Shown: positions 3,759 to 16,496 of the stretch, piece by piece
How the letters are laid out: the number at the start of each line of letters is the position of its first letter
Position numbering within the stretch: position 1 is the first letter of the stretch
DNA from: Promethearchaeota archaeon
Lineage (GTDB): Archaea; Asgardarchaeota; Lokiarchaeia; Sigyniarchaeales; SOKP01
DNA length: 19,372 nt
NCBI GenBank assembly: GCA_048941015.1
Contig: JBHLNZ010000057.1
Span: 1-19,372, forward strand
Reading direction: 5' to 3'
Notes under the pieces: generated by a model
What the model saw: only the letters and a program-made list of their open reading frames with translations
The model's database searches: none
What the model was told of the DNA's origin: nothing
Made by a program: the position numbers and the translations under genes

Positions 3759-4109
3759 CTATAACATTTTCCTTAAGGCTTCTGCAGCAGCAGAAAGCTT
3801 CAAATTAATTATACCTAGTTTAGCATCTGGAGTTGCAATTATACATAAAATATTACCTTCTATCTCAGAAAATAATATTCTTCCTTTCTGGCTCTCAATT
3901 ATTGCGCTAATAAACATGCCTTGTTCTAATTCTTTTGTTGCTCTTTGAGATGCTTTTAAAATAAGGGTGACCATTGCAGCAACGGCTTCAGGATCTACCC
4001 AACCGGGTAAAGCACTGCCCCGAATTAATCCAAACTTTTCAATAATTGCTGCTCCATGTACGCCTTTGATAGATTTCAAGCTTTCCAGGATGTCGGATAT
4101 TTCACTCAT
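3759..4109 (-). CDS. Roadblock/LC7 (MglB-like) domain protein
   Basis: 116 aa with the Roadblock pattern: L..L..IKGVHGAAII...GLI..S, AVAAMV, EL..G......IE...GRIL, LCIIA..DAKLG.I.L. An A-run at 3734-3755 gives a U-rich terminator on the minus strand. Confidence 0.9.
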   Translation of the reverse strand: MSEISDILESLKSIKGVHGAAIIEKFGLIRGSALPGWVDPEAVAAMVTLILKASQRATKELEQGMFISAIIESQKGRILFSEIEGNILCIIATPDAKLGIINLKLSAAAEALRKML

Positions 4110-14606: not shown

Positions 14607-15731
14607 CTAATGATGTTTACCTTTTAATTCCAATTTACGATCCAAAATTTTAACGTATAAATCATCCATAGTTTCAACTAAATCAATCTCTTTGTCTTTT
14701 TTTATGAGATTAATTGCGTTTTCAGGGCAAGTTGGGACACAATTACCACAACCGATACATTTCTTTTTGTTAACCTTGGAAATATCATTAACTAGTTTTA
14801 TAGCCTCCATTTGACAACGGCCTACACATGTACCACAACCAGAACATAATTCTGAATCAACTTCTGCATAATAATTAGCAGAAAAAAATTGTACTGGTCT
14901 AGGAAAAGTCTTTGTACCAGTTAATACAGGGCAACAACATCCGCAGCAACTACAAATAAAGTCAGGTCTAAGTGCATTTCCTGCTTGGAGTACTAAACCG
15001 TCATCTTCATTTTTACGCTGTATCTCGAGAGCTTCCTCTCTTGAGATTTCGCGTCCCCATCCATTATTAATATACATTTGAGCCATTTCACCAAAACCCA
15101 TACAAACTTCACGTCGATCTGTTGCCTTACAAGGTTGTCCGAAAAGATCCATAGCTTGACGACAAATGCAATTTGTTACCATAAATGGATCTTGTGCATT
15201 TTCAATAATAATCTTAAGATCGTCATATGTAGCAATATGATGTTCAGGAGAGATACTTTTTTCGACCGGAATCGTCCGAAACTGTGAAATTTTAGTACCA
15301 AATACTTCTAATCCAAATCCTTCAATAAGATATTGATATATTTTTTTTGTAGTATCAATATCAAGTCTATTTACTTGAAATTCATGAATTCCAATTATGA
15401 ACTGTGCGTTACTAAAATATTTTTTTTCACCTTCTATTTTATGATGTATTAAACCTTTTTTTGCCATGTTATCTAAATGAGTCTCTAATTCTTTAAAGTC
15501 AACACCTGTATCTTTAAGTCGTTCATAAATCACCTCTAAGGGTTCTAATTGCTTAGACCAAGAGAATCTTAAGCTAGTAGCTATTTTAGCCTCTTCTGGA
15601 GTAAAAAGATCTTTCAAAATGTCTATTTCTATACCCGATTTAGTTGATGGAAATCCAATGGGAAAAGAATCAAGGTGTTCTCTCAATTCATTATATACAA
15701 TTGATTCATCTAATAGCATTATTTTAACCAA
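14607..15731 (-). CDS. Multi-iron-sulfur protein with a C-terminal 2x[4Fe-4S] ferredoxin domain (start may be the ATG at 15719)
   Basis: CSGCGTCVGRCQ and CIGCGNCVPTCP, extra Cys clusters CICRQ..C..EVC and ICSCCGCCCP, and an N-terminal FTPEEA...LD.MAKKGLI winged-helix-like segment. Confidence 0.85.
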   Translation of the reverse strand: MVKIMLLDESIVYNELREHLDSFPIGFPSTKSGIEIDILKDLFTPEEAKIATSLRFSWSKQLEPLEVIYERLKDTGVDFKELETHLDNMAKKGLIHHKIEGEKKYFSNAQFIIGIHEFQVNRLDIDTTKKIYQYLIEGFGLEVFGTKISQFRTIPVEKSISPEHHIATYDDLKIIIENAQDPFMVTNCICRQAMDLFGQPCKATDRREVCMGFGEMAQMYINNGWGREISREEALEIQRKNEDDGLVLQAGNALRPDFICSCCGCCCPVLTGTKTFPRPVQFFSANYYAEVDSELCSGCGTCVGRCQMEAIKLVNDISKVNKKKCIGCGNCVPTCPENAINLIKKDKEIDLVETMDDLYVKILDRKLELKGKHH

Positions 15732-15801: not shown

Positions 15802-16218
15802 CTATATATTCTCTCCTAAAAAATGACTGTTAAAAATGCTAAATCTTTTAAAATAGAATAGATGACTCTTACATTGACAATCTGAAGAGCCAAAATTTTT
15901 TATATAATCATCAGCGTTGACAAATATCTCTTGAGCTATAATGCATTCATAAGGATGTTGTGAAGGAATAAGATATAATTTTTTTATTATAGAATTAGAA
16001 TTAGCTAAAAAATAATCTATATGCCAATGGAGCTTTTTATTATTAGAATTTCGTAAATGTCTTCTAACTCTATTAATTAGAGTTGCAGAACCAGAAATTC
16101 CCATTGCTGAACCTACATATAAATAGTAACCTTTAGAAAAGAAAATTTTGCCTAAGGAGCCAATCTGAATTTTAGAATTTTCTTTTAAGAAAATAACTAT
16201 ATTATAAGTTCCTTTCAT
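15802..16218 (-). CDS. GIY-YIG (Uri superfamily) nuclease, DUF123 type
   Basis: KGTY..., IG.LG, GYYLYVGSA, R..RH, K.HWHIDY, EC and FGSSDCQCKSHLFY. The start is reassigned from TTG 16227 to ATG 16218, which overlaps the upstream TGA (ATGA). Confidence 0.88.
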   Translation of the reverse strand: MKGTYNIVIFLKENSKIQIGSLGKIFFSKGYYLYVGSAMGISGSATLINRVRRHLRNSNNKKLHWHIDYFLANSNSIIKKLYLIPSQHPYECIIAQEIFVNADDYIKNFGSSDCQCKSHLFYFKRFSIFNSHFLGENI

Positions 16219-16394
16219 TTTCGGCAATTCTTTTTATGATCTTGGTAACAACTTTCACAGAAAAGTTTACCACATTTTCTGCATTGTATAGCACAATTAT
16301 CGCATATAGCATTATCACATCCGCCAGAGCACTCATATAACACATCGTTTGGATTTTCTCCACAGCTCTCGCAAATTATTTCTCGATTACTCAT
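16215..16394 (-). CDS. Unannotated 59-aa Cys-rich zinc-finger microprotein
   Basis: Hand translation: MSNREIICESCGENPNDVLYECSGGCDNAICDNCAIQCRKCGKLFCESCYQDHKKNCRK*. It has 11 Cys and 1 His in paired knuckles, an ATG start and an ATGA overlap with the DUF123 gene. It is shorter than any ORF in the supplied track. Confidence 0.88.
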   Translation of the reverse strand: MSNREIICESCGENPNDVLYECSGGCDNAICDNCAIQCRKCGKLFCESCYQDHKKNCRK

Positions 16395-16496
16395 TTAAAC
16401 CACATCATAAAGATTATTTATAGTAAAAATAATTAAGCAATTAAAAATAATAAAAATCGTTATTATTACTTAAATAAACTTCTAAAGGTAGTATCA

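Follow-up and report, generated by a model that had tools for sequence, protein, structure and literature searches.

A cysteine-rich archaeal microprotein, predicted to be a cross-brace zinc finger with a third metal site, is encoded directly upstream of a DUF123 nuclease-family gene in four genera of one Heimdallarchaeia family

The stretch of DNA analysed here, 19,372 nucleotides of contig JBHLNZ010000057.1 from a Promethearchaeota archaeon (assembly GCA_048941015.1; hereafter the window), carries on its minus strand a pair of overlapping genes. The first is an open reading frame (ORF) of only 59 codons that encodes a microprotein crowded with cysteines, and the second encodes a protein of the GIY-YIG nuclease family known as DUF123 or COG1833. 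The pair and the region in front of it consist of the following features:

16215..16394, minus strand: microprotein gene, first cistron, 59 amino acids with 12 ligands (11 Cys and 1 His) and three predicted zinc ions; from the ORF reading, conservation, the ratio of nonsynonymous to synonymous substitution rates (dN/dS) and an AlphaFold2 model
15802..16218, minus strand: DUF123/COG1833 GIY-YIG nuclease-family gene, second cistron, 138 amino acids; Pfam PF01986
16215..16218, minus strand: ATGA stop/start overlap, the putative translational coupling junction; from the sequence and from 45 related loci that were typed
16395..16496, no strand assigned: 102-nt divergent intergenic region between the microprotein gene and an acyl-CoA dehydrogenase gene; probable shared promoter region

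The microprotein frame opens with an ATG at position 16394 of the minus strand and closes with a TGA at 16217-16215. We read it at the same positions as a preliminary description of this locus, which had been made from the sequence alone, and with the same spacing of its 11 cysteines and one histidine (C8, C11, C22, C26, C31, C34, C38, C41, C46, C49, H53 and C57). Cysteine accounts for 11 of the 59 residues, as opposed to 1.4% in the 18 other ORFs of the window (binomial P ~7e-10). When the 36 other genomes of the genus were searched with the peptide in six frames, 32 gave an uninterrupted match (47-88% identity), and the microprotein was counted in 36 of 41 genomes of the genus. With the family profile it was recovered from 98 of the 134 remaining genomes of its Heimdallarchaeia family; outside that family the profile returned only weak, doubtful matches. 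As far as searched, then, the microprotein family is confined to one Heimdallarchaeia family. Conservation of the ORF and of its Cys pattern, on which the preliminary description had made its proposal depend, is evident throughout these relatives. Nine cysteines (C8, C11, C22, C26, C31, C34, C38, C41 and C46) are invariant in an alignment of 30 sequences, C49, H53 and C57 are retained in at least 90% of them, and a broader alignment of 24 sequences gives the same picture of ligand conservation. In the orthologue at locus L017 one ligand Cys is replaced by His, a metal ligand nonetheless. One detail of the pattern is local: the second pair, read correctly as CxxxC in this genome, is CxxC in nearly all relatives, the extra residue being an insertion common only to the closest of them. 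Over 43 close pairs dN/dS is 0.02-0.35 (Nei-Gojobori method), with one pair at 0.61 that is based on four differences. Conservation, purifying selection and cysteine enrichment together rule out a chance ORF or a wrong frame, and the ORF at 16215-16394 is a real gene. It had been presented as hidden from annotation. Although it is indeed absent from the local ORF track, its exact sequence exists in public collections, and its orthologues are annotated by NCBI as "hypothetical protein" in metagenome-assembled genomes (MAGs) named Candidatus Heimdallarchaeota or Candidatus Hodarchaeota. The microprotein is thus unnamed rather than truly hidden.

The downstream gene is what it had been taken for, a DUF123 GIY-YIG gene. 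It scores 102 bits with PF01986, whose cut-off is 25 (E 2.7e-29; the match spans positions 3-95 of the 95 in the profile), and its ATG at 16218 corresponds to the start conserved in all relatives (M-K-G-[ST]-Y). In a paired alignment of 32 rows, the GIY-YIG core (Y...Y-x-G-S) varies little or not at all, and the same is true of R108/R111, E149, C150, C172, C174 and H177; the core and the cluster of histidines and cysteines near the C-terminus are those described for COG1833 (by comparison with PMC1564403). By these features the gene is an orthodox member of COG1833/DUF123 and its product a predicted nuclease. COG1833 proteins, of about 150 residues and mainly archaeal, belong to the GIY-YIG superfamily, carry a C-terminal cluster of histidines and cysteines and are functionally uncharacterised (PMC1564403). 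In Methanococcales they are fused to endonuclease III, the ground on which Dunin-Horkawicz et al. suggested that the family takes part in base-excision repair or another repair pathway (PMC1564403). Among the homologues that we collected, a Methanothermococcus protein joins DUF123 to an HhH-GPD glycosylase, and several bacterial and metagenomic proteins (among P0049-P0061) join it to an SfsA nuclease (PF03749 and PF17746); both kinds of fusion point the family to DNA repair. DUF123 was found in 22 of 28 genomes (24 from other families of the class and four of genus g1), in 113 of the 135 genomes of the Heimdallarchaeia family, nearly always as a single copy, and also in the controls Methanocaldococcus jannaschii, Haloferax volcanii and Methanosarcina acetivorans. 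A search of PDB sequences with the DUF123 protein gave no match, which means that no solved structure is detectable by sequence, and no NCBIfam model matches either this protein or the microprotein.

The TGA of the microprotein (16217-16215) and the ATG of DUF123 (16218-16216) overlap as ATGA, just as the preliminary description had it. Of 45 related loci whose junction was typed, 39 have a stop codon followed immediately by ATG (35 TAA, 3 TAG and 1 TGA), six have the ATGA overlap and none has a spacer. Such a junction is consistent with termination-reinitiation, in which a ribosome would finish the first frame and start again on the second. When the coordinates of two whole-genome searches were compared, the microprotein ORF was found directly 5' of DUF123 in 83 genomes of four genera, among them every locus of genus g1 that was examined. 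The adjacent zinc ORF and DUF123 are distributed as follows:

genus g1: 37 genomes
genus g28: 44 genomes
genus g23: 1 genome (G081)
genus g25: 1 genome (G083)

Nowhere in this linked clade is DUF123 preceded by an intergenic region of its own. We infer a promoter for the pair within 16395..16496, where an A/T-rich, TATA-like stretch, TTTTTACTATAAA (about 16417-16429, minus strand), keeps its distance from the ATG throughout loci L001-L007; in a genome of 31% G+C (the value of the window) this stretch is weak evidence. Both flanks of the pair are kept across the genus, with the divergent acyl-CoA dehydrogenase gene on one side and a convergent gene for a 166-residue membrane protein on the other. 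As part of a conserved syntenic block, the adjacency is inherited, and the 83 genomes do not count as independent cases. The tree of DUF123 is poorly resolved, the protein being too short, and a quick tree is compatible with a single origin of the linked state. It may therefore be that the linkage arose once.

What kind of protein the microprotein is has to be judged from distant resemblances, as no Pfam or NCBIfam model reaches its cut-off for it. Below the gathering cut-offs, the nearest Pfam families are FYVE (PF01363; 16.4 bits against 27.8, E 0.0097, residues 37-54 only), the ANCHR-like B-box (PF22586; 15 against 27 bits, E 0.027), Siva (PF05458; 13.9 against 26.2 bits, E 0.046) and zf-B_box (PF00643; 13.6 against 24.1 bits, E 0.078), together with a sub-threshold match to zf-RING_5 (E 0.25). 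The top PDB sequence match of the family profile is the first B-box of MID1 (2ffw; E 0.0064, profile positions 3-36), followed by the RING domains of RNF4 and HOIP. The nearest Atlas cluster, which may be the microprotein's own family, bears the automatic name 'putative B box-type' (score 0.93). An AlphaFold2 model built with the family alignment (predicted local distance difference test, pLDDT, 80.8; predicted template modelling score, pTM, 0.56) consists of short hairpins and a C-terminal helix (residues 47-56). Its fold matches are exclusively cross-brace zinc fingers. FYVE comes first, weakly by VIA (Z 4.3-4.9, root-mean-square deviation 3.1-4.4 over 51-55 residues) and with probability 0.84-0.99 and E 0.15-0.3 by Foldseek, and is followed by the Slp4/RIM fingers, AN1, PHD, RING, HIT and C1; the fold-comparison scores of the microprotein fall in the range that the tool rates as uncertain. 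The basic motif with which FYVE domains bind phosphatidylinositol 3-phosphate is R-[RK]-H-H-C-R, and it is absent from the 59-residue sequence and from the consensus of both family alignments. We accordingly see no family-level match to FYVE, B-box, RING or AN1, the nearest relatives in these comparisons, which bears out the earlier impression of a eukaryote-type finger that agrees exactly with none of them. On the strength of the models, the microprotein is best filed as a putative new family in the cross-brace (binuclear treble-clef) class rather than as a member of FYVE, B-box or RING.

The predicted fold resembles the cross-brace fingers of FYVE and B-box type, with a third metal site in addition. 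With the known cross-brace fingers (FYVE, B-box type 1, RING, PHD, AN1 and HIT/MYND) the microprotein would share interleaved CxxC pairs, a core formed by a small beta-hairpin and, at the C-terminus, a helix bearing the last ligands; its H-x3-C ending is one known for MYND and HIT. The differences lie in number and context. Those fingers have eight ligands in four pairs, whereas the microprotein has twelve in six pairs, hence the third site, and they are domains, whereas the microprotein is a free-standing archaeal protein of 57-59 residues. In the latter respect it resembles the C(P)XCG microproteins of Haloferax volcanii and Halobacterium (HVO_2753, HVO_0758 and Brz), which are likewise shorter than 70 residues, consist almost wholly of CxxC motifs and are often missed or left unnamed in annotation. 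With 59 residues, five CxxC/CxxxC pairs plus H-x3-C and a first pair that reads C-x-x-C-G, it falls within C(P)XCG zinc-finger microproteins (at most 70 residues, at least two CxxC-type motifs), which are a descriptive class and not a homologous family. There is no detectable sequence relationship to the haloarchaeal proteins, which come from a different phylum and have one or two zinc-ribbon-like sites, in contrast to the six ligand pairs and predicted cross-brace fold found here; the structure of HVO_2753 (6YDH) stands low in the list of fold matches, at rank 38. A likeness in gene order may be added: Brz lies directly upstream of the gene that it regulates (PMC2253796).

Three zinc ions per molecule, both as to the identity of the metal and its stoichiometry, are predicted from the spacing of the ligands. 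Studies on the haloarchaeal C(P)XCG proteins indicate that such zinc predictions are usually, although not always, right (PMC11241148, PMC6562870, PMC10716476) and that not all of the predicted zinc fingers bind zinc (PMC11241148). The microprotein might thus hold fewer zinc ions, or iron, or its cysteines might be redox-active, any of which concerns the metal only and would be compatible with any role of the protein. We regard this as improbable, given that the six-pair spacing fits interleaved zinc fingers (B-box, FYVE, MYND, HIT) and not a ferredoxin-type CxxCxxCxxxC, and that a relative with an additional CxxC-x3-CxxC unit exists, as if metal sites were modular. That relative (69 residues, L058:1533-1739, minus strand, genome G055) has 16 potential ligands, which would allow for four metal sites; it belongs to another family of the order and lies about 208 kb from the DUF123 gene of the same genome, unlinked to it. 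The extra unit is also present in a second protein, P0021, and the two together suggest a modular addition of metal sites. Some genomes of genus g28 have a second, divergent copy of the zinc module itself, at L117 (G107:C1, about 2135263-2135460), L115 (G148:C6) and L118 (G126:C9). The L117 copy is situated near the C-terminal end of a frame of about 200 residues, and the module therefore occurs as a domain of longer proteins as well.

The preliminary description had proposed that the two genes form a module. Adjacency in four genera speaks for the proposal, yet elsewhere in the family the genes lie apart. In g20, g21 (5 genomes), g22, g24 and g29 they are unlinked, being found on different contigs, with no DUF123 within 1.5 kb of the microprotein gene; there the microprotein gene is monocistronic and DUF123 has an A/T-rich upstream region of its own. 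In g27 (genome G091) the genes are 1.2 kb apart and in reverse order, DUF123 being upstream. The locus (L110, G091:C153) reads, on one strand, DUF123, a gene of 276 codons, the microprotein gene and a short-chain dehydrogenase gene, and this opposite order in a common neighbourhood hints at a local rearrangement. Neither gene is bound to the presence of the other. Genus g18 has DUF123 in four of five genomes and the microprotein in none of the five; inside the linked genera, G135 (100% complete) and G080 have DUF123 without the microprotein, while G077 (98% complete) has the microprotein without DUF123. In 22 genomes of six other families no such ORF stands upstream of DUF123. At two loci DUF123 is interrupted downstream of an undamaged microprotein ORF: L142 (G095:C22) has an in-frame TAG at about codon 79 and L139 (G105:C66) a frameshift near codon 87, which could be real decay or MAG error. 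A further decayed locus, L141 (G100:C8), was seen in the otherwise linked genus g28: DUF123 is cut short around residue 103, and its upstream side no longer holds the microprotein ORF. Eleven genomes, belonging to g1 and g28, lack both genes, and several of these genomes are 94-99% complete. As adjacent genes are expected to be lost together, we do not take this co-absence as evidence for a module; in three of the g1 genomes (G011, G013 and G029) the orthologous flanking genes are missing too, so that the whole region is gone and nothing is specific to the pair. Nor are the two proteins known as one chain. A profile search of 1.84 billion representatives returned about 20 small relatives and weak matches to long, repetitive, Cys-rich proteins, with no fusion of the zinc module to DUF123, and a search for longer homologues of DUF123 found only the SfsA and endonuclease III fusions, none with the zinc module. 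The 308-residue cluster member P0069 proved to be an unrelated, mis-clustered protein.

The reading that we favour, and to which we would give an even chance, is that the microprotein and DUF123 are co-expressed in one clade, possibly as facultative partners, and are not the halves of an obligate two-component nuclease. According to it, the microprotein family would be older than, and independent of, the link to DUF123. In the ancestor of the four genera, which include the lineage of the present genome, the two genes would have come to abut, and the bicistronic unit would have been kept since. Transcription would start in the 102-nt divergent intergenic region, and ribosomes finishing the microprotein ORF would resume translation at the DUF123 start codon, which overlaps or abuts the stop, so that both proteins would be made together. 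The microprotein itself would be a general adaptor built on a zinc scaffold, its fold suggesting that it binds protein, nucleic acid or another ligand. The phyletic pattern and the coupling geometry on which this account is built were observed directly; the reinitiation and the adaptor role are what we infer. Several points weigh against it. The zero spacer or 4-nt overlap holds in 45 of 45 typed loci although the proteins are only 45-65% identical across lineages, and an invariant junction is expected for proteins needed in a fixed ratio, which often interact. GIY-YIG nucleases are known to recruit zinc modules, as exemplified by the RING of Slx1 and the C-terminal Cys/His cluster of COG1833 (PMC1564403). 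A model of the two proteins as one read-through chain, described below, leaves room for their packing against each other. Finally, MAG errors could account for the two broken DUF123 genes, and incompleteness of genomes for some of the mismatches in presence and absence.

A closer relationship would be one in which the microprotein is a dedicated accessory subunit that binds DUF123 and serves as its zinc-finger arm, be it for recognition of DNA, substrate or a partner or for control of dimerisation. The pair would then be a split counterpart of Slx1, the eukaryotic GIY-YIG nuclease with a C-terminal RING-type zinc domain (PMC1564403), and the subunit would act in trans in the unlinked genera. 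We consider this possible, though the balance tips against it. In its favour are the tight junction with the adjacency in 83 genomes, the missing intergenic region of DUF123 in the linked clade, the joint loss from 11 genomes, the cross-brace fold class, which is also that of RING, and the fact that most family genomes having the microprotein also have DUF123. A read-through fusion, for which the stop codon followed by an in-frame ATG in most relatives offers a natural template (TAA was read as Gly in 32 natural loci, which make up the paired alignment), was modelled as a chain of 188 residues (57 plus 130 plus a one-residue linker) with a mean pLDDT of 85.9. Its pTM of 0.74 is somewhat above that of a single confident, well-folded domain of 130 residues, a value to be read with the one-residue linker, which forces proximity, and with the lack of a predicted aligned error in mind. 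The preliminary description would have given up the module if homologues occurred unlinked to DUF123 and no interaction were predicted or measured; unlinked homologues do occur, which weakens the module in part. On the opposite side, the linkage possibly has a single origin within a syntenic block, at least six genera keep the two genes unlinked, DUF123 occurs without the microprotein in g18 and in all the other families searched, G077 has the microprotein without DUF123, no fused form turned up in either search, and joint loss is what adjacency would produce in any case. As to Slx1, to which the pair had been likened, the likeness holds in that a GIY-YIG nuclease stands together with a module of the cross-brace class. 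It does not extend to architecture, Slx1 being one chain with its zinc domain at the C-terminus where here there are two genes with the zinc module first, nor to descent: the DUF123/COG1833 lineage is separate from Slx1 and was grouped with UvrC (PMC1564403), and Slx1 is absent from the sequence and fold matches. A more specific proposal would be that the ancient COG1833 repair nuclease gained a three-zinc subunit of FYVE/RING-like type, encoded separately but co-translated, which binds the nuclease and either guides its cutting or holds it in check; in our estimate this is unlikely. Were it true, this subunit, found in the archaeal lineage nearest to eukaryotes, would provide the first functional handle both on a DUF family and on an unnamed microprotein family.

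Two further explanations of the tight junction we effectively reject. The small gene in first place, the 4-nt overlap and the small sizes of both proteins resemble type II toxin-antitoxin operons, and a toxin-antitoxin-like pair, in which the microprotein would be made first and neutralise or inhibit a harmful nuclease, had been among the suggestions of the preliminary description. This does not suit a gene that is near-universal and single-copy in archaea (see the counts above), that has no such partner in most lineages and that is fused elsewhere to endonuclease III or SfsA (PMC1564403), and therefore looks like housekeeping repair and not like a toxin. Nor is the obligate, mobile and patchy pairing of type II systems seen here, where each gene also occurs alone and the locus is chromosomal and syntenic; we hold the suggestion to be very improbable. 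Even slighter is the chance that the microprotein ORF is a regulatory upstream ORF whose translation alone matters for DUF123 and whose peptide has no function. Stop/start coupling would indeed make translation of DUF123 depend on the upstream frame, but a functionless peptide should not be under strong purifying selection on its amino acids (dN/dS 0.02-0.35), keep 12 ligands invariant or nearly so, have a confidently predicted fold (pLDDT 80.8) and persist as a stand-alone gene in other genera.

Our verdict is that the locus encodes a new family of predicted zinc microproteins, with a cross-brace fold and a third metal site as modelled, that is probably co-expressed with DUF123 in this clade. 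The idea of a dedicated nuclease/zinc-finger module is partly supported and plausible. We found no description in the literature of this microprotein family or of its coupling to DUF123; literature on DUF123, PF01986 and B-box in Asgard archaea yielded nothing relevant, and the survey of the GIY-YIG superfamily describes no translationally coupled upstream zinc microprotein for COG1833 (PMC1564403). DUF123/COG1833 is among the most widespread archaeal nuclease families of no known function, and a conserved co-expressed partner would be a first experimental way in. A compact, predicted cross-brace module of eukaryote-like type that stands as a gene of its own in Heimdall/Hod-type Asgard archaea is relevant to the age of such modules outside eukaryotes, and to the number of functional microproteins still carried as "hypothetical". 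The case also calls for caution, as one ancestral event may lie behind a perfectly conserved junction in 83 genomes, which alone is no proof of a functional module.

Some neighbouring genes deserve mention. Where the microprotein gene stands alone in g22, g24 and g20, it is convergent with a gene for a JAB1/MPN-domain protein of 316-345 residues (L104:527-1477, L106:564-1514, L108:432-1469 and L114:526-1491, and also L105:1692-2819), the stop codons of the two being 4-80 nt apart; the domain assignment (PF01398) has an E of 1.3e-14 for the L106 copy. A deubiquitinase-like gene of eukaryotic type beside a RING/B-box-like finger may be a matter of chance, yet the arrangement recurs in three genera. 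In the window itself, a 374-residue protein with a C-terminal 2x[4Fe-4S] ferredoxin domain is encoded at 14607-15731 on the minus strand, 70 nt downstream of DUF123 and in the same direction, with no obvious T-run in between. This gene is absent from the position in all 35 other related loci searched and is therefore an insertion specific to this genome. Farther away, at 3759-4109 on the minus strand, lies the gene of a 116-residue Roadblock/LC7-domain protein (PF03259, E 9.4e-10), a common gene of the Asgard 'eukaryotic signature' type.

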